From contig NZ_JBGFSK010000017.1 in assembly GCF_041365945.1 (NCBI RefSeq), forward strand, positions 2,555 to 12,733: a stretch of DNA of 10,179 bases, read 5' to 3'. Positions 538-10,074 of the stretch are shown here, piece after piece. Made by a program: the position numbers and the translations under genes. Position 1 is the stretch's first letter; each line of letters opens with the position of its first letter. Below the pieces are notes generated by a model, which searched no databases, was not told the origin of the DNA, and was given only the letters and a program-made list of their open reading frames with translations. The stretch is from Janibacter sp. GXQ6167. Lineage in GTDB: Bacteria; Actinomycetota; Actinomycetes; Actinomycetales; Dermatophilaceae.

Positions 538-1123
538 TCACTCGGCCGCTACGACGGCCAATCGATCAAGGTCTCTCACCTCCATCCGATACAACAGCGC
601 CTCGTGGCGCACGACGTGCTCGTCGACACCGATCGTGGTGACCCCGTCGAACCGACCAGGATCGTCGATCAGGCGCCGCTTGCCCTCCGCGAGCACCGCA
701 GTGTTCGCGGCGCTCCAGGAAACCCCAAGACCGGCGGCGACACGGGTCACGGTGAGGTGGTCGACGACGATGCCCCGCAGCGCCCACTCCACGCCGAGGC
801 GGGAGATCTTCGCTCGTGGCGCGGCGGCGCGAGTCATGTCCCGCCGCCACGTCCGCCGGCAGTGCGCGCACCGGTAGCGGCGGACCCGGACCAGAAGCGT
901 TGTCGGCCTATGCCCGAACGGCTCATGCGCGAGTCGACGCGTCACCGTGTCCCGCGACACACCCCTCCGCCCCGCACTTCCGACACCAGGGGTCCACCTC
1001 GACCGACCGACACTCGATCATCGCCCGGTCCCGCTCGAGCAGCTGGCCGACCGCTTCGAGCCCGAGTTCATCGAGGCGGCAGAACGTGGTCAGGTCAGGG
1101 GTCGCGAAAGTAGGGTGGAGCAC
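538..1123 (-). pseudogene. ISL3-family transposase, N-terminal ~195 codons only, interrupted by at least one frameshift (near 925-960) and 3'-truncated.
   Basis: Two overlapping minus-strand ORFs (923..1123 and 538..960) together reconstruct a contiguous ISL3 transposase N-terminus across different frames. No ATG lies in frame upstream; the track's M at 1123 is a GTG. An alternative MMEVLHARHPER... start lies in another frame, which suggests further decay. Confidence 0.7.
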
Positions 1124-1202
1124 GTCGAGGTCTTTCGGGATGGCGAGCGTGAAGAACTTCCATCATCCGGGAGACCTCGACCCCTACCCGGCTGCCAACG
1201 CG

Positions 1203-1236
1203 CTCACCCGACTACACCCTCATTCGTGAAGAGCCC
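1203..1236 (-). repeat. Terminal inverted repeat (outer end at ~1236) of the ISL3-family element. Its exact inner boundary is uncertain.
   Basis: RC of plus strand 1228-1236 = GGGCTCTTC, followed by ACGAATGAGGGTGTAG. The integrase reading frame reads through this sequence into a stop (…IGLFTNEGVVG*), marking the insertion junction. Confidence 0.45.
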
Positions 1237-1653
1237 GATAAGACGGGCGACGTTGCGGCTGACGAGTTCGTCGCGCATCGCGCGGGTCAGGGCGGCGGAC
1301 AGTACGGTGCGGAACTTCTGTGCGGTGCGGATTGAGTGGCCCTCGTCGAGCAGCGCGCAGGCGGCGTTCTGCACGTCGCGCACGGTGAGCTGGGTCAGGC
1401 GCTTGCTGCCGATGCGAGGAAGGATGTGCAGTCGCACGACGCCCTCGTATCCCCGTGCGGTGTTGCGTCGGTTGCGGCGCGGCACGACTGTCTCTAGCCA
1501 CTGCTGCAGATAGCCGGCGACCGTGACCTGTGAGTTCGGGGTCAGGATGCCGCGGCCCTCGTGCCGCGGCCCGCCCGGGCGCTTGCGTCGCCTTGCGACC
1601 CGCCGGATCGGCTCGAAAAGACGTTCTGTGGTATATCTATTACGAGAGGCCAT
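1204..1653 (-). pseudogene. Tyrosine recombinase / phage-type integrase, N-terminal core-binding (SAM-like) domain only. The native sequence spans ~1237..1653. The catalytic domain is missing because of the ISL3 insertion.
   Basis: Translation from ATG (RC of 1651-1653): MASRNRYTTERLFEPIRRVARRRKRPGGPRHEGRGILTPNSQVTVAGYLQQWLETVVPRRNRRNTARGYEGVVRLHILPRIGSKRLTQLTVRDVQNAACALLDEGHSIRTAQKFRTVLSAALTRAMRDELVSRNVARLI... This matches the integrase N-terminal core-binding domain pattern: YLxxWL, hydrophobic-rich helix (RLHILPRIG), and SxxTxxKxxxxLxxALxxA. The ORF then continues into the IS terminal repeat and stops. No R..HxxR..Y catalytic domain is present. Confidence 0.7.
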
Positions 1654-1714
1654 ATACAGGATGCACCTGGGCCTTGTCTGGGGGCTACCCAGATCGAGTC
1701 TGGAGGTGTACGGC

Positions 1715-2329
1715 GTGGCCGCGCGAGTCGTCGATGTGCGTTGTCCGGGATGCGGGAGCGCCTGGAGCACCAACCAGCAGTTCTGCCAGTACTGCGGTCG
1801 CCAGGTGCTGATCAGCTCGATGTCCGACCTGATCAGCCTGGAAGCGCGCGACCTCAAGAAGCACGTCCGTACCTACGAGGACGCGCTGGACGAGGGCGCC
1901 GATGATCCGAGCGTGCATGCGGCGCTCGGCATGTGCCTGCTCAAGCTGGGGCTGCGCGACAAGGCGCTGTCGCACTTCGAGGATGCGCTGCTCGATGACA
2001 TCGAGAACTCGGAACCGTACTTCTACGCCGCCGTCGCGTCGCTGGGTGGCAAGAAGCCGTTCCTGGTTCCGCTGGCTGGCATCCGCCGCGCGGAGGAGTA
2101 CCTCACGGCGGCGCTGCGGCTCGAGGAGCGCGGAATCTACGCCTACCTCTACGGGTACATCCGCTTCGACTACTACGAGCGCAAGTCGCTGAACGTCGAG
2201 CCGTCGTACCAGCACTACCTGCAGCAGGCAGTGCTTCGCGGTGTGACCGATCTGGACATCCAGACGCTGTTCGAGCTGCTGGAGATCGTCCCTTCGTCCG
2301 CTTCCATTCCGACCAGCGTTTCCGCCTGA
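1715..2329 (+). CDS. Zinc-ribbon protein with a C-terminal TPR-like, all-helical domain (204 aa from the GTG at 1715). It is possibly a YdjG-like component.
   Basis: It is the first gene of the co-directional operon. GGAGG at 1702-1706 lies 8 nt upstream of the GTG at 1715. Starting here avoids overlap with the integrase fragment on the opposite strand. The N-terminus has the ribbon CPGCG-x9-FCQYCG (1742-1800). The remainder (…ALGMCLLKLGLRDKALSHFEDALLDD…EEYLTAALRLEERGIYAYLYGYIRFDYYERKS…) is TPR-like helical. The 1523..1714 extension in the ORF track would overlap the integrase start and is RP-rich, so I reject it. Confidence 0.7.
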   Translation: MAARVVDVRCPGCGSAWSTNQQFCQYCGRQVLISSMSDLISLEARDLKKHVRTYEDALDEGADDPSVHAALGMCLLKLGLRDKALSHFEDALLDDIENSEPYFYAAVASLGGKKPFLVPLAGIRRAEEYLTAALRLEERGIYAYLYGYIRFDYYERKSLNVEPSYQHYLQQAVLRGVTDLDIQTLFELLEIVPSSASIPTSVSA

Positions 2330-2365
2330 CCCCTGTTCTAACCACCCGAGAGAGGTTCCTTCGCA

Positions 2366-3061
2366 ATGGCCATCAACTATGAGCGCAACAAGAAGTACTT
2401 CAAGCAGTCCAGCCCCAAGGCCGGCATCATCCTGATCGTGATCGGCCTGGTGCTGACGCTCGCCCTCCCCGAGGCGGGCAAGCTCGTCGGCATCCTGGGC
2501 ATCCTGGGTGGCGCGGCGCTGATCTACTTCCAGTTCGCGGGCAAGCCGAGCGACGCGGACATCGACTCGGACGCTGCTGCCGCCATCGCGGACGTGAAGA
2601 AGCGCGCGCTGGGCAAGCTCGGTCTGGACGAGGACGAGGTCAAGCTCATCGACCCGGTGATCGTTCACGGCTACTACTACAAGAACATCGCCTCGGGCGT
2701 GCAGGTCAAGCTCGGCAAGGACCGCGTCTTCCGTTCCTCGAACTACGAGGGCGTCGTGCTGTTCTTCAGCGAGCACCAGCTGCACGCGTTCAAGTTCCAG
2801 TTCTCTCTCGTCTCGCCGCAGGAGAGCCGCGAGCAGACCGACGAGTACTTCTACAAGGACGTCGTGTCGGTGGCGACGCAGTCGGAGACGTTCAAGATCA
2901 ACGACATCAAGGGCAACAGCCAGCAGGTCAACTTCGAGGAGTTCAAGCTCACCACCACGGGTGGCACCTCGATCACTTCGTCGATCCGCGACGAGGGCTC
3001 GGTCAGCCGCGTCATCTCCGGCGCGCGCAGCCTGATTCGCGAGAAGAAGATCGCGTCCTGA
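2366..3061 (+). CDS. Membrane-anchored protein (231 aa). It has an N-terminal hydrophobic hairpin (AGIILIVIGLVLTLAL…LVGILGILGGAALIYF) and a soluble ~170-aa domain. It is possibly YdjH-like.
   Basis: ATG at 2366 is preceded by GAGAGAGG (2348-2355), and it lies 36 bp after the stop of the upstream gene. The protein is unusually Lys-rich (K > R) for a high-GC host, yet it keeps high GC3 (AAG, TTC, TAC codons). Confidence 0.75.
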   Translation: MAINYERNKKYFKQSSPKAGIILIVIGLVLTLALPEAGKLVGILGILGGAALIYFQFAGKPSDADIDSDAAAAIADVKKRALGKLGLDEDEVKLIDPVIVHGYYYKNIASGVQVKLGKDRVFRSSNYEGVVLFFSEHQLHAFKFQFSLVSPQESREQTDEYFYKDVVSVATQSETFKINDIKGNSQQVNFEEFKLTTTGGTSITSSIRDEGSVSRVISGARSLIREKKIAS

Positions 3062-3079
3062 CCCCGAGTTCTCTGCGTG

Positions 3080-3112
3080 CCGGGGCCGGTCGGCAGTCGC
3101 CACCGGCTCCGG
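3080..3112 (+). promoter_or_regulatory. Intergenic stem-loop between the membrane-protein gene and the ATPase gene (11-bp stem, 11-nt loop). It may be a partial terminator/attenuator or an RNA-processing element.
   Basis: CCGGGGCCGGT (3080-3090), loop CGGCAGTCGCC, ACCGGCTCCGG (3102-3112). The arms are complementary except for one G·U pair. No U-tract follows, so it is not a classical intrinsic terminator. Confidence 0.3.
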
Positions 3113-3156
3113 CACACCAATTCCGCTGCCCGAGCGTGACGTGAGGAGTGTGCCGT

Positions 3157-5841
3157 ATGCCCGCAGGCGACGCGCCCCTGACGTTCACGCCTCTCGCGCA
3201 GGGTGAAGTAGCCGCTGCTACGGTGGTCGAGGTCGTCCGCATCCCGCACGTCTCCGTGCTGGGCGATGATCCGGCTGCCGAGCTGGTGCAGCAGTCCAAG
3301 CGGGACTTCGTCAGCCTGCTGTTCGAGGCGTACCAGTCGTACCGCGGACAGTACGAGGACGGCCCCGACCGAGCTAGCGACTGCGCTCTGGAACTGCTTT
3401 GGCAAGCACACCCCATTCAGGGCCAGCCGCACGCCGCCGACCTCACGCTATTCATCATCGTTCGCGCGATCGGCGCGAACCGGGACGACGCAGCGGCGGT
3501 TGTCAACGAGCTGCACGCTGTCGTGATCAGCGCGCTCACGCTCGGCGGCTTCGACTACGCAGATCGTCCTGCCTCCGCGATCGGCGCCCAGGCGGCGGAA
3601 CGGTCGGTTGCGCTCGTGAAGGAGGAGTGGATTGAGAACCTCGGCAACCAGATCCTGCCGAGCGCCTTCGCCTTCCACCGTATCCCCACGGGCAGCCGTG
3701 ATCTCTCACGTATCGCCAGCGCCCTAACCGAGGTGCCCGGTGCGTCCCTCTCGGTTCAGCTGATCCCGGCGACACTGGAGCCTGACGAGCGGACTGCTAT
3801 CGAGCAGCTGACGCTGGCGCTCACGACCCTCGCCAACGGTGTGACGGATCAGTCGATCGGTACCGTCAGCTTCACCGCGGCGAAGCGCCTCGCGGAGATG
3901 TACTCGTATCTGGAGGGGCACAAGGACTCGCCCCTGTTTCTGTTTAACGTCGTCGTCTCCGGGCCGAAGCTCGCCGTGCCGGTGATCGCCAACCGGGTGC
4001 TCGGTCACCTCTCCGCCGACGCCGAGGTAGGCGCGCTGGCGGCACGCTTCGTCGACGCCACAGCCCTGGTGCCACGAGGCGATGCGTCCTTCGTCGCTGC
4101 ACCGTGGCAGCTGAACGAGACGCTGCTCGACCAGACTCGTGATCCGTCGCTCTGGGCGGCGGGCCGCAATCCCGGTGAGGCATTCTACCGGCTGCCGTTC
4201 CTGCTGACGGCATTCGAGGCATCGGAGTTGTTCCGTCTGCCGATCGGCAGTGACACGGTCGGCGCCGGGCTGACGGTGAACACCACGACCCGGCACTCGC
4301 GCAACTACTCGGCCGGCGTGATCGGGAGCTCGAGCATCGAAGCCGGGCGACTCGCCGGGGCGGCCGAGGTCTCGATCGGGTTCGGGCATACCGACCTGAC
4401 CAAGCACGCTTTCGTCACGGGGACGCCCGGTTCGGGTAAGACGACGTTCACGGTCGGGCTGCTCGACCGGCTCTGGCACGAGCACGGCATCCCGTATCTG
4501 GTGATCGAGCCGGCGAAGAACGAGTACCGGGCGCTGATCGAGACGACGCCGGATCTGCAGGTGTTCACCCCGGGCAAGGATCATCTGTCTCCGCTTGTGC
4601 TGAACCCGTTCCTGCCGCCAGCGGGCGTGCGGGTGCAGAGCTACAAGTCGACCCTCAAGACGGCGTTCGCAGCCGCGGTCACGATGACGAGCCCCCTGGA
4701 CAAGATCTTCGAGGACGCCCTCTCAGCCACGTACTCGCGGTTTGGCTGGTTCGATGCCGACACAGCCGCCGATGGCCGTGAGGTGTTCTCTATCCGCGAC
4801 TTCCTGGCCGTTTTCCAGGAGACCTTCGTCCGCATCGGCTACACCGGAGACGCGGCCAACATCGGACGAGCAGGCCAGGTGCGCCTGCAGAGTCTGGTTG
4901 GCCTGTTCGACACCTACCCTTCGATCCCTGTCGAGGATCTGCTGTCGAAACCCACGGTAATCGAGCTGGCAGGGATCGAGAACAGCGACGACAAGGCCCT
5001 CTACATCGCGCTCATCCTGCTGCAGGTCCTCGCCTACGTGAACGCCAACGTCGCCGGCGACGGGAAACTCAAGCACGTCCTCCTGCTCGAAGAAGCCCAC
5101 GTCTTGCTCGACGCCGACGACGCCAGCGGACCGGGCGAAGCGGACCCCGCCGCGATTGCGAAGAAGCTGCTCAAACGCATGTTGGCCGAGATCCGCTCCT
5201 ACGGCGTCGGCATCATCGTGGCCGATCAGTCGCCACGCAAGGTCGGCTCGGACGTGGTGGCGCTCACGAACATCAAGCTCGGGTTCCGGCTGGTCGAGGC
5301 CGCAGACAAGGAGATCCTGGCCGAGAGCACCAACATGAGCGACGCGCAGCGCGAGCGGCTGGCGCGGCTCCGGCCGGGCGAGGCACTCCTGTTCTACGAC
5401 CGCCTCGAAGACCCCGAGGAGATCGCCACAGCCGACTGGCGCGCCCAGCGCGGCATCCCGACGTTCGTGTCCGATGAGGAGATCGCCCGAAAGGTCACTT
5501 ACTGGCAGCGGCACCCGGAACTGCTCATGCCATACCCGGAGAGCGCCTACATCGGGGGCTGGGACGCCTCGGTTGCCGGTGCGGGCAAGGAGATCGCCCG
5601 GCGCCTCTTCGCCGCGCACGTCCCGGCCGGCGATGTCGGCGTCAAGAGATTCGGCAGCATCTACCGGCAGCTCGATGCGTTCATCGCCGCCGAACTTCCC
5701 GCGTCGATCCCGAACACGCCGGCCCTGCGGCGAGCGGTCAAGGTCAACTTCCTGCGGCTGGTCAAGTACGAGTCGCAGATCCCACTGTCGGACGCCACGA
5801 TCCACAAGACCCTCGAAGCCGAGAGGAGCCGCACAGCATGA
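3157..5841 (+). CDS. HerA/FtsK-superfamily (DUF87 / HerA-like) P-loop ATPase, 894 aa. The ~420-aa N-terminal domain is unassigned.
   Basis: GAGGAG (3143-3148) lies 8 nt upstream of the ATG at 3157; the track's GTG at 3148 has no spacer. Walker A is GTPGSGKTT (~4420-4446), followed by YLVIEPAKNEY and LVLNPF; HerA proteins have …IFDPHGEY…INPF in the same positions. Walker B is HVLLLEEAHVLL (~5074-5100). The C-terminal motif GVGIIVADQSPRKVGSDVVALTNIKLGFRL matches the HerA 'RKYGvgl.lvtQrPsel…' region. The stop overlaps the next start (ATGA at 5838-5841). Confidence 0.85.
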   Translation: MPAGDAPLTFTPLAQGEVAAATVVEVVRIPHVSVLGDDPAAELVQQSKRDFVSLLFEAYQSYRGQYEDGPDRASDCALELLWQAHPIQGQPHAADLTLFIIVRAIGANRDDAAAVVNELHAVVISALTLGGFDYADRPASAIGAQAAERSVALVKEEWIENLGNQILPSAFAFHRIPTGSRDLSRIASALTEVPGASLSVQLIPATLEPDERTAIEQLTLALTTLANGVTDQSIGTVSFTAAKRLAEMYSYLEGHKDSPLFLFNVVVSGPKLAVPVIANRVLGHLSADAEVGALAARFVDATALVPRGDASFVAAPWQLNETLLDQTRDPSLWAAGRNPGEAFYRLPFLLTAFEASELFRLPIGSDTVGAGLTVNTTTRHSRNYSAGVIGSSSIEAGRLAGAAEVSIGFGHTDLTKHAFVTGTPGSGKTTFTVGLLDRLWHEHGIPYLVIEPAKNEYRALIETTPDLQVFTPGKDHLSPLVLNPFLPPAGVRVQSYKSTLKTAFAAAVTMTSPLDKIFEDALSATYSRFGWFDADTAADGREVFSIRDFLAVFQETFVRIGYTGDAANIGRAGQVRLQSLVGLFDTYPSIPVEDLLSKPTVIELAGIENSDDKALYIALILLQVLAYVNANVAGDGKLKHVLLLEEAHVLLDADDASGPGEADPAAIAKKLLKRMLAEIRSYGVGIIVADQSPRKVGSDVVALTNIKLGFRLVEAADKEILAESTNMSDAQRERLARLRPGEALLFYDRLEDPEEIATADWRAQRGIPTFVSDEEIARKVTYWQRHPELLMPYPESAYIGGWDASVAGAGKEIARRLFAAHVPAGDVGVKRFGSIYRQLDAFIAAELPASIPNTPALRRAVKVNFLRLVKYESQIPLSDATIHKTLEAERSRTA

Positions 5842-7019
5842 GCGACTACGGCACCGACATTGCAGACGCCCCCGTCGACACCGGCGCGGACGTCAGCGTG
5901 CCCGATACGACCGACTACGCCGACGAGCCGGTCGACCTGGCCGAGACCCCGCCCGAGTCGGAGGCGCCCGAGGCCGAGGAGGCGCCGCCCGCCGAAGACC
6001 TCTCGGAGCCCGCAGCAGATGAACTGAGCGGCACGGCGGAGACGCCGGCGGATGCGGAGGCACCCGTCGACCTGGGCGCGGCCCCGGAAACGGCCGACGC
6101 CGCCCCGGAACAGCCCCAGGACTGGCAGGAGGGCGAGGTCGTCGATCTCGGCGACGACGCTGCCCCCGACGCCCCGCAGGAGGACGAGACCGCCGAGGCG
6201 GACGATCCTGCCGGGCGCGACCTGGGTGATCCCGACCTGGCCGACAGCCCGGAGGCCGAGGCTCCCACGGATAGCGCCGGTGAGGATCTGACGACACCGA
6301 CGGACGACGAACCGGGCGCCGGTGATGCGCCGACTGACGCCGACGAGCAGGTACCTGAGGCGGCGGAGATTGAGCCCGAGGCCGCAAACGACGTGACGGA
6401 TGCCGAACCCGAGCCCAGGGTCGATGAGTTGACAGAGGCGGCCCGGGATGAGGCCCGCCCCGCCGACGAGCTGCGCGCCGAGTACTACGCCGACGTGGCT
6501 GATGTGCTGGCCGATGACACACCATCCGACGCCGAGCCGGTCGAGACGCAGGACACTCCCGGAGCAGACGCTGCCGAGGCGCCGGAGTCGAGCGATCACG
6601 CGGACGCCGCCAATGACCGCAGCAACTCCCCAGAGAACGAGGCACTGACCTCGGCGCTAGCCGAGAAAGGCCTGTCGCTGGAGCCGGTCGATCGCTTCGA
6701 CTACAGCGACAACCCGGTTCTCGGCTACCGCGAGTCCGCCCCGCCCGAAGACGTCGCGTACGCCGTCAACGCCTGGAACGACGAGATCGCGCCCGGCATC
6801 GCGGCCGGCGCGACCCGTGAGGACTTCGCCGCCTACGACCAGGAGCACGGCCTCGAAGGGCAGCGGCAGCTGGCCGGCGTCTACGACTACATGCTCGGCG
6901 GCGACGCGATCAAGAGCGGCGGAGAGCGCGAGGACGGATCGCTCGACGTCACCGGCGGCAGGCACCGCCTGGAACAGGCGCGTCTGAACGGCGTCCAGTA
7001 CCTGCCCGTGAGGAAGTAG
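5838..7019 (+). CDS. Acidic, low-complexity protein (393 aa). It has a ~270-aa D/E/A/P-rich, presumably disordered N-terminal region and a ~120-aa C-terminal globular domain.
   Basis: Translationally coupled by an ATGA overlap, with GAGAGGAG at 5821-5828. The frame shows clean high-GC codon usage (GAC/GAG/GCC/CCC), while the alternative frames are Arg/Pro-rich junk. The C-terminus contains …VYDYMLGGDAIKSGGEREDGSLDVTGGRHRLEQARLNGVQYLPVRK. The GGxHRxxxAxxxG…PV stretch is reminiscent of ParB/Srx box II, but that is tentative. Confidence 0.65.
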   Translation: MSDYGTDIADAPVDTGADVSVPDTTDYADEPVDLAETPPESEAPEAEEAPPAEDLSEPAADELSGTAETPADAEAPVDLGAAPETADAAPEQPQDWQEGEVVDLGDDAAPDAPQEDETAEADDPAGRDLGDPDLADSPEAEAPTDSAGEDLTTPTDDEPGAGDAPTDADEQVPEAAEIEPEAANDVTDAEPEPRVDELTEAARDEARPADELRAEYYADVADVLADDTPSDAEPVETQDTPGADAAEAPESSDHADAANDRSNSPENEALTSALAEKGLSLEPVDRFDYSDNPVLGYRESAPPEDVAYAVNAWNDEIAPGIAAGATREDFAAYDQEHGLEGQRQLAGVYDYMLGGDAIKSGGEREDGSLDVTGGRHRLEQARLNGVQYLPVRK

Positions 7020-7056
7020 CCGACCCGGCATCCGATCCGACGAAAGCGAACACCGT

Positions 7057-8256
7057 ATGAAGATCTACGACGTCATCAAGAACGAGACCGGCCTTCTCAA
7101 CGACGGCCTGGGCTCGAAGGCCGTGCTGGCGTGGAAGTTCACCGGTGAGGACTTCAACGACAACACGCAGCTGATCGTCTCCGAATCGGAGGAGGCGATC
7201 TTCATCCGCGACGGCATCGCCGTGGCGACCTTCGGCGGCGGCCGCTACACGCTCAACAGCAACAACCACCCCTTCATCGGCAGGCTGAGGAACCTGCTCT
7301 CCGGCGGGGTGAGCGCGTTCAGCTCGCGGGTGTACTTCGTCAACATCGATCACAAGTTGGAACTGCTGTGGGGCACCGACAGCCCGATCCAGCTCCGCGA
7401 CCCGGTCTGGAGCCTGCAGACCAGCGTGCAGGCGCGCGGCTCGTACTCGATCCAGGTGACGGACTCCAAGAAGTTCCTGATCAAACTGCTCGGCACCAAC
7501 ATCCAGGTTTTCGACGAGCAGCAGCTCGCCGGCTACTTCCGCAGCGCCTTCTCGCAGCACATCCGCGGACAGATCGCCCGCTACATCCGCGACTCCGGCC
7601 AGGAGATCCTGGAGATCACCTCGGACATCGAGCTGCTGGCCGAGCAGCTGCACCCGAGGCTCGCACCGCTGCTGGATGAGTACGGCGTGAAGCTCGTCAA
7701 CTTCTACATCGCCGCGATCGACATCCCCACCGACGACCCGAACCGCCAAGTGCTGGAGAACTCGATCGCACAGAAGCAGGCCAAGCTGCAGAGCGCGCAG
7801 GGCGATAAGGCCGTCATGGGGCTGCTCGGGGAAGACTGGGCCAGGCAGCAGTCGGCCACCATCCTCACCGAGCTCGCCAAGAACCCCGGCGCGGGTGGCG
7901 TGGCTTCCGCGGGTGCCGCAGCAGGCGTTGGCCTGGCTGCGGGCAGCGTCTTCGGGGAGATGGCGACGCAGATGTTCACGCGCCCCGTCCAGCCCGCAGG
8001 CGACCCGATGGCTGGCAATGTCGGGCGCAACCGCACATCGCGCTTCTCGCCCGCAGAGCCTGCCGCGCCGGCCGCCGCCGAGACGTGTCCGGGCTGCGGC
8101 GCGAGCGTGGCGGCGGGAGCGAAGTTCTGCCCGGAGTGCGGCAACCGTCTCGCACCTCAGCAGGTGCCCTGCTCGGGTTGCGGAACCGCAATCGCGAGCA
8201 CGGCCAAGTTCTGCCCCGAATGCGGAACGCCGAACAACCAGGGAGCATCCTCATGA
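7057..8256 (+). CDS. SPFH/Band-7-family protein (COG4260 / PF13421-like, 'putative virion core protein' group) with C-terminal tandem (double) zinc ribbons, 399 aa. YdjI-like.
   Basis: The N-terminal ~250 aa match the COG4260 pattern as I recall it: MKIYDVIKNE…, GGRYTLNSNNHPFIG, YFVNIDHKLELLWGTDSPI, ARGSYSIQVTDSKKF. A Gly/Ala-rich linker follows. Then come two tandem ribbons, CPGCG-x9-FCPECG and CSGCG-x9-FCPECG (8086-8229). The stop overlaps the next start (ATGA at 8253-8256). Confidence 0.85.
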   Translation: MKIYDVIKNETGLLNDGLGSKAVLAWKFTGEDFNDNTQLIVSESEEAIFIRDGIAVATFGGGRYTLNSNNHPFIGRLRNLLSGGVSAFSSRVYFVNIDHKLELLWGTDSPIQLRDPVWSLQTSVQARGSYSIQVTDSKKFLIKLLGTNIQVFDEQQLAGYFRSAFSQHIRGQIARYIRDSGQEILEITSDIELLAEQLHPRLAPLLDEYGVKLVNFYIAAIDIPTDDPNRQVLENSIAQKQAKLQSAQGDKAVMGLLGEDWARQQSATILTELAKNPGAGGVASAGAAAGVGLAAGSVFGEMATQMFTRPVQPAGDPMAGNVGRNRTSRFSPAEPAAPAAAETCPGCGASVAAGAKFCPECGNRLAPQQVPCSGCGTAIASTAKFCPECGTPNNQGASS

Positions 8257-8930
8257 CCCGCACGATCCTGCGCGCCATCCTGTGGCTCGTCCCCATCGCC
8301 GTCTACGTCGCCATCTTCCTCATCCTCGAGGCCCCGCAGGGCGCGACGTTCTGGACGTCCGCACTGCTGCTGGCGTTCGCCTACGTCATGCTCGCCGTCA
8401 GTTTCGTCGCCGTGCCGCGCAGTCGGATAGCCGCGATCCTGGCCATGCCCCTGATCCTGGTGGCGAGCATCTACTTCACTGCCGAGCTCATCGCGGCCAG
8501 CATCTTCATCTACGTGCAGGACATTCCATACCCGTGGGTGATCATCACGCAGCTGATCCTGGCCGCGATCTTCCTCGTCGTGTTCCTCACCACCTTGTTG
8601 TCCAACGAGGCCATCGCCGCCCAGATCGAGACCCAGCACGCCGACGTCCTGGTGATCAAGAGCGCCGTCACCCGCATCACGGCCCTGGGACGTGTCGCCC
8701 ACGATCCGCGCCTGGCGAAGTCGCTGGACGGGCTGGCCGAGGAGTTCCGCTACAGCCCGACGATGCGCTCGAACCAGGTGCGCGAAGTCGACGCGCAGAT
8801 CGCCGTGCAGCTCGAGCGACTGGAGAGCCTCGTCCACATCCAAGCTTCGCAAGAGGATACCGTCGGCCAGATCGCGGCGATATCCGGGGCGCTCGCTTCA
8901 CGCAACGAGGCGATCAAGCTCCGCCAGTAG
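8253..8930 (+). CDS. Integral membrane protein (225 aa). It has 4 predicted TM helices and a ~75-aa C-terminal helical, coiled-coil-like cytoplasmic tail.
   Basis: ATG at 8253 with GGGAG at 8241-8245. It has four long hydrophobic segments (ILWLVPIAVYVAIFLIL; ALLLAFAYVMLAVSFVAV; AAILAMPLILVASIYFTAELIAASIFIYV; VIITQLILAAIFLVVFLTTLL). The track's longer ORF starting at 8085 overlaps the zinc-ribbon coding region of the upstream gene in another frame, so I reject it. Confidence 0.75.
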   Translation: MTRTILRAILWLVPIAVYVAIFLILEAPQGATFWTSALLLAFAYVMLAVSFVAVPRSRIAAILAMPLILVASIYFTAELIAASIFIYVQDIPYPWVIITQLILAAIFLVVFLTTLLSNEAIAAQIETQHADVLVIKSAVTRITALGRVAHDPRLAKSLDGLAEEFRYSPTMRSNQVREVDAQIAVQLERLESLVHIQASQEDTVGQIAAISGALASRNEAIKLRQ

Positions 8931-9226
8931 GAGGAGGTGCATAGGGCAGACCCGCGCGCAGATCCGGCCACGGCTGCGGCACCAGCTGGTCGAGCGTGAC
9001 ACCGAGCACCTGCGCGATGGCCATGATCTTGCGCAGACTCGGGTTGGCCGGAGTCTCCGGCATCGACTCGCCCTTCTCGAACTTCTGGAAGGTGTAGCGC
9101 GTGAGCCCAGCGGCGTAGGCAACCTGCTCCTGGGTGAGTCCACGGTCGATCCGGTGCCGCTGAATGCTGGCACCAAGTTCGCGCGCGTACTGGGGCCAAG
9201 GGCCATCGGGTCGTCGTTTTTGCCAT
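8914..9226 (-). pseudogene. XRE-family helix-turn-helix transcriptional regulator (~104 aa if repaired). Its reading frame is disrupted by a +1 frameshift in a T5 homopolymer (plus strand 9217-9221) immediately after the start codon.
   Basis: The minus-strand frame reads …KRRPDGPWPQYARELGASIQRHRIDRGLTQEQVAYAAGLTRYTFQKFEKGESMPETPANPSLRKIMAIAQVLGVTLDQLVPQPWPDLRAGLPYAPPPTGGA*. This is the classic XRE pattern (GLTQEQVA…G…R…ExG). There is no in-frame start, and a stop lies directly upstream. The ATG at the RC of 9224-9226 is +1 out of frame. Deleting one A from the AAAAA run restores MAKRRPDGPWPQYARELG…. The 3' end overlaps the 3' end of the convergent membrane-protein gene by ~17 bp. Confidence 0.6.
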
Positions 9227-9376
9227 CACCCCAGGCTGAGCAGGTGGCCTCCCGGAACGAACCTCCTGTATATGGCAATAGATCCGCTCGATCAGTAACC
9301 CCGCGTGGCCGTCGGCGACGATAGGCGCATGAATGAAGAAGGCCCGGGAGCCGCTCCAGCCGAGAACTCGTGGTTC

Positions 9377-9919
9377 TCAAGGCCGGGGCGAACTCCCGAG
9401 CAGGGCGTGCAGCTGATGGCTGGCTGGTGAGACGGCGCGAATGCGGGTCTCGTGGAGGGCGGGGTCGTGCGTGCGCAGGTACATCGCCCAGAACGCCGCG
9501 TCGGCATACGTTGTGTGCAGATCTGACTGCGCCCGCCAGCCGCTCGAAGCGGTGCGCCGGTAGCCGACTTCGTAAGGGCCGCCATGCAGGAGTTCCTGCA
9601 CGAGTGATGCCGGGACGTCACCGACCGGGTAGGTGCTGCCGATATCGCCCACGAGGAGCACGTCGCCGTGCAACGCCGGCCGCTGCCTTGAAGTGGTGTC
9701 CCAGAACCAGCGCAGCGACGAGGCGCGCAGGTTCATCGGGAGCCCGTTTCGGCGGTCGTCGGCGTCGAGCCACATCGTGACACCTCGGCTCTCGATGTCG
9801 ATCGGGATCACCAGATCAGCGAGCTGCTGAATGTCTGCGAACCCTGCGACCTCCCGCGTTTCGAGTTGTTGCTCGATCTGCGCCGGGATGAGAACAGCCG
9901 TGACGGTCTCACCATTCAC
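9377..9919 (-). CDS. Hypothetical protein, 180 aa, Trp-rich. It may be a small mobile-element-associated protein.
   Basis: It is the longest ORF in this region, with a balanced amino-acid composition (MNGETVTAVLIPAQIEQQLETREVAGFADIQQLADLVIPIDIESRGVTMWLDADDRRNGLPMNLRASSLRWFWDT…). The overlapping plus-strand ORF 9370..9780 is Arg/Pro-rich junk. No convincing SD sits upstream, so confidence is moderate. Confidence 0.45.
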   Translation of the reverse strand: MNGETVTAVLIPAQIEQQLETREVAGFADIQQLADLVIPIDIESRGVTMWLDADDRRNGLPMNLRASSLRWFWDTTSRQRPALHGDVLLVGDIGSTYPVGDVPASLVQELLHGGPYEVGYRRTASSGWRAQSDLHTTYADAAFWAMYLRTHDPALHETRIRAVSPASHQLHALLGSSPRP

Positions 9920-10074
9920 GACGGCTCACCCGCAGTGAGGCAGTAGTGCCCCGTAGCGTGGTGTAGCCCGCGGTGGCCGGCTCGTCGTTCGCGACGTAGG
10001 CGCGGTCACCGTGTGATCCTTCGAGAAGTCTCTTACCTCCACTCGAAAGGCATCATCACGATGACCGCTCCTCA

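Follow-up and report, generated by a model that had tools for sequence, protein, structure and literature searches.

A mobile six-gene cassette linking an FtsK-HerA-type ATPase to polyacidic toxin-type proteins: a proposed system for ATPase-driven toxin delivery

What could be the function of an operon in which a large FtsK-HerA-type ATPase is encoded together with a polyacidic protein, an SPFH protein and two small membrane proteins? This question is raised by a stretch of 10,179 nucleotides from Janibacter sp. GXQ6167 (contig NZ_JBGFSK010000017.1, positions 2,555 to 12,733 of the forward strand), which is referred to here, at its full length, as the window. It harbours six co-directional genes on the plus strand: g1 (1715-2329, 204 amino acids (aa)), g2 (2366-3061, 231 aa), g3 (3157-5841, 894 aa; the ATPase), g4 (5838-7019, 393 aa; the polyacidic protein), g5 (7057-8256, 399 aa; the SPFH protein) and g6 (8253-8930, 225 aa; a protein with four transmembrane (TM) helices). 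The genes are separated by gaps of 36 bp (g1/g2), 95 bp (g2/g3) and 37 bp (g4/g5), and both g3/g4 and g5/g6 are joined by ATGA overlaps. This arrangement, including a hairpin in the 95-bp gap, had been described in an original prediction made from the DNA letters alone, and the coordinates of the open reading frames (ORFs) confirm it. Additionally, the third-position GC of 85-95% in all six genes, in a genome of 66% GC (62-73% along the window), represents a strong coding signal. Our best reading of this locus is that it is a self-contained, horizontally mobile cassette that handles toxin-type proteins defined by a polyacidic leader. From the sequences, we propose that the cassette may carry out the ATPase-driven delivery of such toxins, a reading to which we would give an even chance.

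Homologues of the ATPase form more than 1600 clusters at 90% identity. Those of about 890 aa that are 45-50% identical are encoded by Actinomycetota, Clostridia, Erysipelotrichaceae, Bacteroidales and Treponema, as well as by Planctomycetota, Kiritimatiellia, Opitutaceae, Akkermansiaceae and Fibrobacteria, and the cassette spans at least seven phyla, which include both monoderms and diderms. A metagenome scan added 80 further loci, many of them from termite gut, rumen and human gut. ORFs were called in all of the 139 non-redundant loci and searched with the window proteins and with family hidden Markov models (HMMs); as the gene set recurs in these 139 loci, the grouping of the six genes is not a matter of chance. 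The order of the core, from the ATPase to the polyacidic protein, the SPFH protein and the 4-TM protein, is invariant. Where the sequence extends 7 kb or more beyond the ATPase, g5 is found in 49 of 49 loci and g6 comes directly after g5 in 48 of 49. The ATPase and SPFH genes are separated by 126 bp to 4.9 kb of DNA. A polyacidic ORF also follows the ATPase immediately in another 14 contigs, which are truncated. Cultured carriers of the cassette include Modestobacter lapidis DSM 100206 (L003), Ruminococcus albus AR67 (L036), Faecalicatena contorta ET55 (L047), Bengtsoniella intestinalis BP47G (L030) and Paludibacter sp. 221 (L016).

This comparison reverses one claim of the original prediction, according to which the ATPase and the polyacidic protein had been inserted into a membrane module similar to YdjG/H/I: both belong, with g5 and g6, to the invariant core, and it is g1 and g2 that are dispensable or replaceable. 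The co-occurrence of the six genes is consequently partial, as it holds for the ATPase, polyacidic, SPFH and 4-TM core, while g1 and g2 occur together in only 27 of the 40 loci with both flanks, are absent from 13 and have sometimes been moved after g6. A divergent subclade (L051, L053, L054, L055, L048 and L161), with ATPases 39-43% identical to that of the window, was also observed. Within it, the SPFH gene of L048 and L161 follows the ATPase with no intervening ORF; L048 encodes a 485-aa polyacidic ORF after g6, and a polyacidic ORF is located after g6 in L049 as well.

The cassette also has clear borders, which were set by comparison with relatives at 1702-8935 (plus strand). When the window was compared by blastn with two related actinobacterial contigs, only 1702-8935 aligned with L082 and only 1634-8929 with L001, and the alignment with L085 covered 1577-9941 at 88% nucleotide identity. 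The edges of the cassette are thus sharp, and the flanking DNA is unrelated from genome to genome.

The hallmark of the cassette is the polyacidic protein. In nearly every locus, an ORF starts 0-30 nt after the stop codon of the ATPase, and 86 distinct polyacidic proteins were found. They share the N-terminal consensus M-[DGS]-[DE]-[DE]-[FY]-[DE]-x-S-x-D, with F or Y at position 4 or 5 in 58 of the 86, when 7.4 would be expected by chance. The motif is followed by a low-complexity tract of 61-1265 residues with 25-60% D/E and about 3% K/R (3% also within the first 60 residues of the proteins), which often consists of recently expanded repeats. None of the 86 proteins has a signal peptide (Sec/Tat), a Sec-type hydrophobic stretch or a TM helix. 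Some acidic tracts are built from tandem, near-perfect peptide repeats, for instance TETEAVDEQPTD repeated about 15 times, PEQPETE-type units or PEDV units (L094 9653-11161, L134 12513-14861 and L024 5909-8284), and such near-perfect repeats imply that the length of the leader expands and contracts rapidly.

The C-terminal heads behind this leader vary by locus, and those recognised by Pfam are polymorphic-toxin domains: TNT (1e-27), the glutamine deamidase Gln_amidase or Tox-PL1 (5e-15), WHH/Colicin-DNase (9e-13), GH-E (2e-24), the NS-type endonuclease Endonuclea_NS_2 (1e-20), the C39-like peptidase Peptidase_C39_2 and metallopeptidases of the SprT/DUF6782 zincin type with an HExxH motif. Most of the heads seen have no Pfam family. 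Most are also followed by a non-acidic ORF of 61-188 aa, often with overlapping stop and start codons. These small ORFs are diverse and co-vary with the head family (e.g., a 98-aa family accompanies the zincins and an 81-aa family the deamidase heads). A Pfam scan of ten small ORFs located after toxins gave no Imm family except one DUF7675 and a sub-threshold Imm-NTF2-2; in a later, larger sample, however, a GH-E-type head was found to be followed by a SUFU-family protein (L111, 1.3e-27), and Imm-SuFu is listed as an immunity family for Tox-GHE (PMC3482391). In several loci, the leader is found on two or three proteins, and every one of these is accompanied by a small ORF of its own. A common N-terminal leader, found in 86 proteins, is combined with variable heads drawn from the shared toxin pool, which is one of the defining features of polymorphic toxin systems.

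The commonest pair in this slot consists of a short polyacidic HExxH zincin of about 220 aa and its conserved 98-aa partner (L111 11664-12632; also L013, L045, L049, L052, L084, L094, L100, L113 and L134). The pair is often followed by a second leader-bearing toxin, and a second motif, [DE][FY]GGDL...G[VI]DLN, is common to these proteins. The short zincin may be an effector or a processing protease.

In the window, g4 (MSDYGTDIADAP..., 28% D/E) fits the leader pattern of the family. Its N-terminal part (5838-6629, plus strand) starts with MSDYGTD and continues as a polyacidic low-complexity region with about 30-38% D/E, and its head (6630-7019, plus strand; residues 265-393) is a putative ParB/sulfiredoxin-like domain with an invariant D-x3-G-R-H-R motif, reminiscent of the DGHHR motif of Tox-ParB (PMC3482391). 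Whole g4 matches no Pfam, NCBIfam or PADLOC family; the head has no Pfam or PDB sequence match, and nothing useful was obtained when the head alignment (A3) was compared with the PDB. A single-sequence, word-based search with the head gave only five matches and a full HMM scan was needed: the profile search of 1.84 billion representatives recovered 523 clusters, in which the domain is always C-terminal. Among the matches listed, most of the proteins with this head are actinobacterial and have 230-300 aa. Eleven head-bearing proteins were examined, of which four have a polyacidic leader (P0126, P0127, P0128 and P0130) and six a helical leader of about 110-170 aa; one helical leader on a g4-type head matches EsxA/WXG100 from S. 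aureus (E 0.0016). As the same head is found elsewhere behind helical or WXG100-like leaders, the g4-type head is modular, and the polyacidic tract stands where a secretion leader is found in other proteins.

A ParB-like head behind a helical leader was also observed in another actinobacterial locus (L081, 1-7612), which encodes an Hsp70, a GrpE-like protein, a single-domain FtsK/SpoIIIE ATPase of 892 aa, a 176-aa protein, two helical proteins of about 90 aa, the helical-leader toxin and then a PQQ beta-propeller protein. Its assignment to a type VII secretion system (T7SS) was rejected, with a WXG100 match of only E 0.93, and it looks like another uncharacterised ATPase-linked toxin system.

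The ATPase, g3, is a member of the FtsK-HerA P-loop superfamily, as indicated by its Walker motifs (A, GTPGSGKT, residues 422-429; B, LLLEEAH, residues 642-648; both invariant in the family), its RecA-like core and its HerA/VirB4/FtsK-like fold. Pfam recognises DUF87 in it (29.1 bits, with a cut-off of 23.2), which bears out the expectation of a DUF87/HerA-like protein, and its N-terminal region of about 390 aa is family-specific. Among PDB sequences, its only relatives are HerA proteins, and these only over residues 642-761. In structural alignments of the ATPase domain from the AlphaFold2 (AF2) model, the highest score corresponds to the C-terminal domain of DptH/DndH (22.1), followed by the C-terminal domain of VirB4 (20.8), HerA (17.2), DotL/TrwB (about 16.9), TrwK (13.8), EccC (9.9) and FtsK (9.3), and Foldseek ranked full-length TrwK/VirB4 first. 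Despite this affinity, the scores against the curated NCBIfam families are far under their cut-offs, both for HerA (HerA_antiphage, 37 vs. 800 bits; helicase_HerA, 32 vs. 970) and for transfer proteins (CedD, 72 vs. 600; VirB4_plasma, 14 vs. 590), and there is no match to a Pfam VirB4 family. Similarly, the search of PADLOC-DB 2.0, which had been suggested as a check, found no described system: only g3 gave matches, and these were weak (mad8, 9e-17; HerA profiles, 2e-12 or weaker; DndH). Consequently, g3 represents a family of its own that lies close to VirB4, HerA and DptH within the FtsK-HerA superfamily.

The two proteins that complete the core could be described to different extents. g5 is a soluble SPFH protein with a C-terminal double zinc ribbon, and the anticipated domains were both found by Pfam: Band_7_1 (1.3e-33, residues 32-226) and DZR (2.4e-10, residues 344-390), with a disordered linker between them. 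It gave nothing useful against PDB sequences and no match in NCBIfam or PADLOC. The tail of its orthologues is a double zinc ribbon in Actinobacteria and SHOCT in Firmicutes (e.g., L004 15832-16995). The tail module can be exchanged, and the Band_7_1 core is retained. g6 has, according to hydropathy, four TM helices followed by a C-terminal helical domain of 110 aa, and it has no Pfam, NCBIfam or PADLOC family and no relative among PDB sequences. By the same method, no TM helix was found in g1, g3, g4 or g5.

The accessory components are g1 and g2. g1 is a soluble zinc-ribbon and TPR protein, with Pfam matches to TPR_2 (6.9e-5) and DZR (1.8e-4), both under the cut-off, and none in NCBIfam or PADLOC; its orthologues are encoded upstream of the ATPase or after g6 in at least 33 loci. 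g2 is a membrane protein in which hydropathy indicates an N-terminal hairpin of two TM helices (residues 19-55) and then a soluble domain of 170 aa; it has no Pfam (E <= 0.1), NCBIfam or PADLOC family, and its family alignment (A6) has no relative among PDB sequences. In 23 loci, mostly from Bacteroidales, the place of g1 and g2 is taken by a protein family of about 364-476 aa (typically ~387), usually encoded after g6, with two N-terminal zinc ribbons, a middle domain, two C-terminal TM helices and sometimes an acidic tail (e.g., L013 2397-3827 and L138 81-1244). Additionally, 18 loci have, between g2 and g3, a gene for a YidD-domain protein with extra TM segments (e.g., L004 9468-9953). The loci concerned are from Firmicutes, Paludibacter (L016) and Spirochaetaceae (L021), and the window lacks this gene. 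YidD is a membrane-protein insertion efficiency factor.

How might these parts work together? The gene set and its conservation, the build of the polyacidic proteins, the toxin and immunity families, the fold of the ATPase, the topology and the mobility come directly from the analysis. Beyond this, we infer that the cassette products would form a single complex in which the leader is the substrate of the ATPase. In this model, g3 would act as a ring-shaped translocase belonging to the VirB4/HerA/DptH branch, and g6, with its four TM helices, and g2, with its two, would hold it against the inner side of the cytoplasmic membrane. The soluble g5 would be an oligomeric scaffold, similar to YdjI, which is recruited by YdjG/H (PMC8581546), and g1 might be an adaptor. 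g3 would recognise the short N-terminal motif of g4 and thread its unfolded, DNA-like polyanionic leader, whose charge spacing would resemble that of a single-stranded nucleic acid, and the C-terminal head (here ParB-like and possibly toxic) would thereby leave the cytoplasm. Where the head is toxic to the producer, the small ORF after it would code for an immunity protein that shields the producer and its kin.

Several observations favour delivery. The leader, the swappable heads, the cognate small ORFs and the arrays of several effectors follow the grammar of polymorphic toxins. The ATPase, the polyacidic ORF, the SPFH protein and the 4-TM protein are invariantly linked, and the cassette moves as a unit. 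In addition, WXG-type and polyacidic leaders are exchanged on the same head; the closest folds of the ATPase include the secretion motors VirB4 and TrwB/DotL and, at a greater distance, EccC; and the gene for a YidD-like membrane-insertion factor is present in 18 loci.

Other observations weigh against it. Only 2 + 4 TM helices per protomer would be embedded in the membrane, the soluble domains are all predicted to lie in the cytoplasm, and no recurrent outer-membrane gene was found even though the core is present in both monoderms and diderms, which is unusual for secretion across the envelope. The heads that could be identified all act on cytoplasmic targets, and no cell-wall-degrading head, which would have proved a destination outside the cytoplasm, was found among them. 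The best structural match of the ATPase domain is a defence protein, DptH/DndH, and the AF2 model of g3 is moderate (predicted local distance difference test score, 62). Neither the window nor its actinobacterial relatives have an immunity-like ORF after g4, as g5 begins within 37 bp or less, and their heads are conserved and not polymorphic; given both features, the window head is only putatively toxic. Lastly, L051 and L053-L055 have only acidic proteins of 67-175 aa that lack the head, and such headless versions in the divergent subclade suggest that the acidic protein could have a function in itself.

Among known systems, the cassette would work most like a T7SS with LXG/WXG toxins, yet it fails every T7SS feature tested. 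Both combine an FtsK-HerA ATPase and small membrane proteins with toxin-type proteins that share a leader and have swappable heads; T7SS toxins are followed by immunity genes, and in many loci of the cassette the heads are followed by immunity-like genes. However, the ATPase of the cassette has one domain and no TM helix, whereas EssC/EccC has two TM helices and three FtsK domains. There are no WXG100 genes, the leader is disordered and polyacidic instead of a helical hairpin, an SPFH protein is present, and the cassette also occurs in Bacteroidota, Spirochaetota, Planctomycetota and Verrucomicrobiota. Thus, neither a membrane-anchored, tandem-FtsK EssC/EccC nor WXG100 substrates were found in it. 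With type IV secretion systems (T4SSs), the likeness is in the ATPase: VirB4/TrwK and TrwB/DotL are among the closest folds, after DptH/DndH, and VirB4 has about 800-900 aa with a large N-terminal domain. By contrast, no other T4SS component is encoded in the cassette and the VirB4 family scores are far under the cut-off. The signals of T4SS substrates are C-terminal and basic or hydrophobic; the leader of the cassette is N-terminal and acidic. An analogy can also be drawn with the RTX substrates of type I secretion systems, which are very acidic, Sec-independent and presumably unfolded. These substrates, however, carry a C-terminal signal and depend on an ABC-transporter motor with TolC, and the cassette has no ABC, membrane fusion protein or TolC gene.

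The strongest alternative is that the cassette acts inside the producer, as an abortive-infection system or a defence against mobile elements, and we consider it unlikely, although not negligibly so. In this case, a membrane-anchored HerA-like ATPase would survey incoming DNA, with the effector parked on or in the ATPase ring by its DNA-mimic leader. Invading DNA, or a perturbation of the membrane sensed by the SPFH and TM proteins, would free the toxic head in the producer, and the small ORFs would buffer leakage. An identical core in monoderms and diderms, without envelope-specific genes, fits an intracellular system, as do the predicted cytoplasmic location of all soluble domains and the affinities of the ATPase to DptH and HerA; horizontal transfer across phyla and location on mobile elements are also typical of defence cargo. 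On the other hand, immunity-like gene pairs, tandem effector arrays and a shared leader are the signature of exported polymorphic toxins and not of abortive-infection effectors, and the head domain of the window is found elsewhere behind a WXG100-like leader. PADLOC matches are limited to ATPase profiles (g3), and no known defence gene recurs among the neighbours of the cassette, a comparison that does not constitute a formal enrichment test. The cassette also differs from the HerA-effector pairs (SIR2-HerA/Nezha and DUF4297-HerA) and from the DptH of DndFGH: the HerA_antiphage score of 37 bits is far from the required 800, its effectors have a polyacidic leader and usually an immunity-like gene, its membrane and SPFH partners are obligatory, and no NurA, SIR2 or DUF4297 partner gene is present in any annotated locus. 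The original prediction had favoured a defence or stress system; as the polyacidic protein is now recognised as being of the polymorphic-toxin type, usually with an immunity-like gene, this has become the weaker reading.

Before considering the next alternative, it is necessary to describe the surroundings of the cassette. Upstream of it in the window, and outside the system, there are two remnants on the minus strand. One is a frameshifted and truncated transposase of the ISL3 family (538-1123), which matches NF033550 (ISL3, 2.7e-25) over profile positions 24-153 of 370, and also Zn_ribbon_ISL3. The part that matches the profile is 538-960, the zinc-finger N-terminus (923-1123) lies in another frame, and the DDE domain is missing. 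The other is an N-terminal fragment of a tyrosine integrase (1204-1857), with SAM-like and central domains only (Phage_int_SAM_3, 4.3e-10, residues 113-165). The Pfam scan gave no Phage_integrase catalytic match for it, and the catalytic domain is cut off where the ISL3 remnant starts. Both matches, although incomplete, agree with the truncated integrase and the insertion-sequence fragment that had been noticed beside the operon, and intact integrases of the same type adjoin the cassette in the Firmicute loci L004, L083 and L086. On the other side of the cassette, a DUF3846-like ORF (9377-9919, minus strand; Pfam 1.7e-5, just under the cut-off; phrog_3777, 3e-6) is conserved with L085, where homology extends to 9941, but not with L082 or L001, and it is therefore placed outside the cassette.

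Within the cassette, the 95-bp gap between g2 and g3 contains a GC-rich hairpin with a 17-bp stem (3077-3115, plus strand) that lacks a T tract and has a segment z-score of only -1.84. The terminator scan did not call it and found nothing relevant; it might serve for attenuation within the operon, for processing or for stabilisation. No promoter was found in the window by a sigma-70 scan.

In Firmicutes, the cassette lies between an integrase and an Xre regulator on one side and relaxase/MobC on the other, near T4SS and ArdA genes, which indicates that it is there the cargo of integrative and conjugative or mobilizable elements (ICEs/IMEs). Beyond the cassette, the recurrent neighbours in the 77 other loci are integrases (13), resolvases (5) and relaxases (4), with no others. 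The actinobacterial copies have ordinary chromosomal surroundings without element genes, and no tRNA or att landmark was found in the window, L085 or L001. A scan of IMG/VR with the ATPase gave no viral relative, and the cassette matches PHROG only weakly and only through its ATPase, which lends no support to a phage origin. Taken together, the sharp borders, the differing flanks, the 139 loci and the carriage by Firmicute ICEs uphold the idea that the combined unit is horizontally acquired cargo. Two other genes of the Firmicute ICE in L004 (regions 942-5522 and 20483-22682) code for a NACHT NTPase of 1526 aa and for a protein of over 3000 aa that combines MutS_I, SNF2 and helicase domains and resembles a polyvalent protein.

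Such a location could suggest an addiction or competition module, in which toxin/immunity pairs would stabilise the ICE or kill siblings that lack the element and the ATPase, SPFH and TM proteins would regulate the release or turnover of the toxin instead of its transport. The position of the Firmicute cassettes between integrase/Xre and relaxase/MobC genes, next to T4SS and ArdA genes, would fit this possibility, as would the integrase as the main recurrent outside neighbour (13 of 77 loci) and the integrase and insertion-sequence debris at the edge of the cassette in the window. Nevertheless, we regard it as improbable: the actinobacterial copies are in ordinary chromosomal contexts, without element genes or an immunity-like ORF, and a motor ATPase of 894 aa and four structural proteins far exceed the machinery of known addiction modules.

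A third possibility, close to the original prediction, is a PspA-independent membrane-stress module of the YdjGHI (SamGHI) type that recruited an ATPase. g5 does have the architecture of YdjI by the published description (PMC8581546, PMC11237479), including the lack of TM helices and a gene located beside those of membrane proteins (PMC8581546). This part of the proposed YdjG/H/I trio stands, but the rest does not. YdjG comprises two zinc ribbons, an NTF2-like domain and a TM segment, and YdjH is a TPM-domain membrane protein (PMC11237479), whereas g1 has one zinc ribbon with TPR and no TM helix, and g2 has no TPM match at E <= 0.1. In fact, the layout of the ~387-aa zinc-ribbon and 2-TM family that replaces g1 and g2 is closer to YdjG than that of g1. 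In addition, g1 and g2 are dispensable, the Ydj operon contains nothing equivalent to the ATPase, the polyacidic toxin or g6, and PspA, which had been reported as missing from the window, was not called in any of the nine Pfam-annotated loci when the neighbourhood was checked. As this explanation also leaves the toxin heads, the immunity-like genes and the leader unaccounted for, we consider it very improbable. Finally, an ordinary conjugative ATPase of the VirB4/TraB type with its transfer genes, or a Ced-like system for DNA import or export, is scarcely credible and is largely refuted by the gene content, since the scores are far under the cut-offs (CedD, 72 vs. 600 bits; VirB4_plasma, 14 vs. 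590), the cassette itself contains no relaxase, pilin or VirB3/6/8/10 gene, the ATPase has genes for SPFH and toxin proteins as its neighbours, and the Firmicute ICE in L083 has separate T4SS genes, including one for a TraG/VirB4-type P-loop protein.

Gene content and family scores thus agree with the view that this is an undescribed unit, and neither a housekeeping operon nor an ordinary conjugation set. In the open-access literature, including papers on polymorphic toxins, polyvalent proteins, NTP-dependent conflict systems and the phage shock protein response, no description was found of the operon, of a polyacidic toxin leader or of a linkage between DUF87 and SPFH proteins. Consequently, we rate the cassette as new as a system, while the theme of polymorphic toxin-immunity modules with a dedicated motor is already known.

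Returning to delivery, the most specific form of our proposal is that of a new protein-delivery system, common to monoderms and diderms, in which a VirB4/HerA-like ring ATPase, an SPFH cage and two small membrane proteins would thread a DNA-mimicking polyacidic leader; we advance it tentatively, with confidence somewhat short of even. If true, it would represent a new principle of substrate recognition for the FtsK-HerA superfamily of “DNA pumps”, in which a motor family that pumps nucleic acids could be adapted to a polyanionic polypeptide, and SPFH proteins would gain a mechanistic partner. Interbacterial toxins of gut, rumen and termite-gut microbiomes and of soil Actinobacteria would likewise have a new route. 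A simple leader would make the substrates recognisable from their sequence and, as most heads have no Pfam family, new toxin and immunity families could then be discovered systematically. If the defence explanation were true instead, the cassette would be a new membrane-anchored, HerA-type immune system with effectors tethered by a DNA mimic. Under either reading, g2, g6 and the leader, which were without any annotation, would gain a context.

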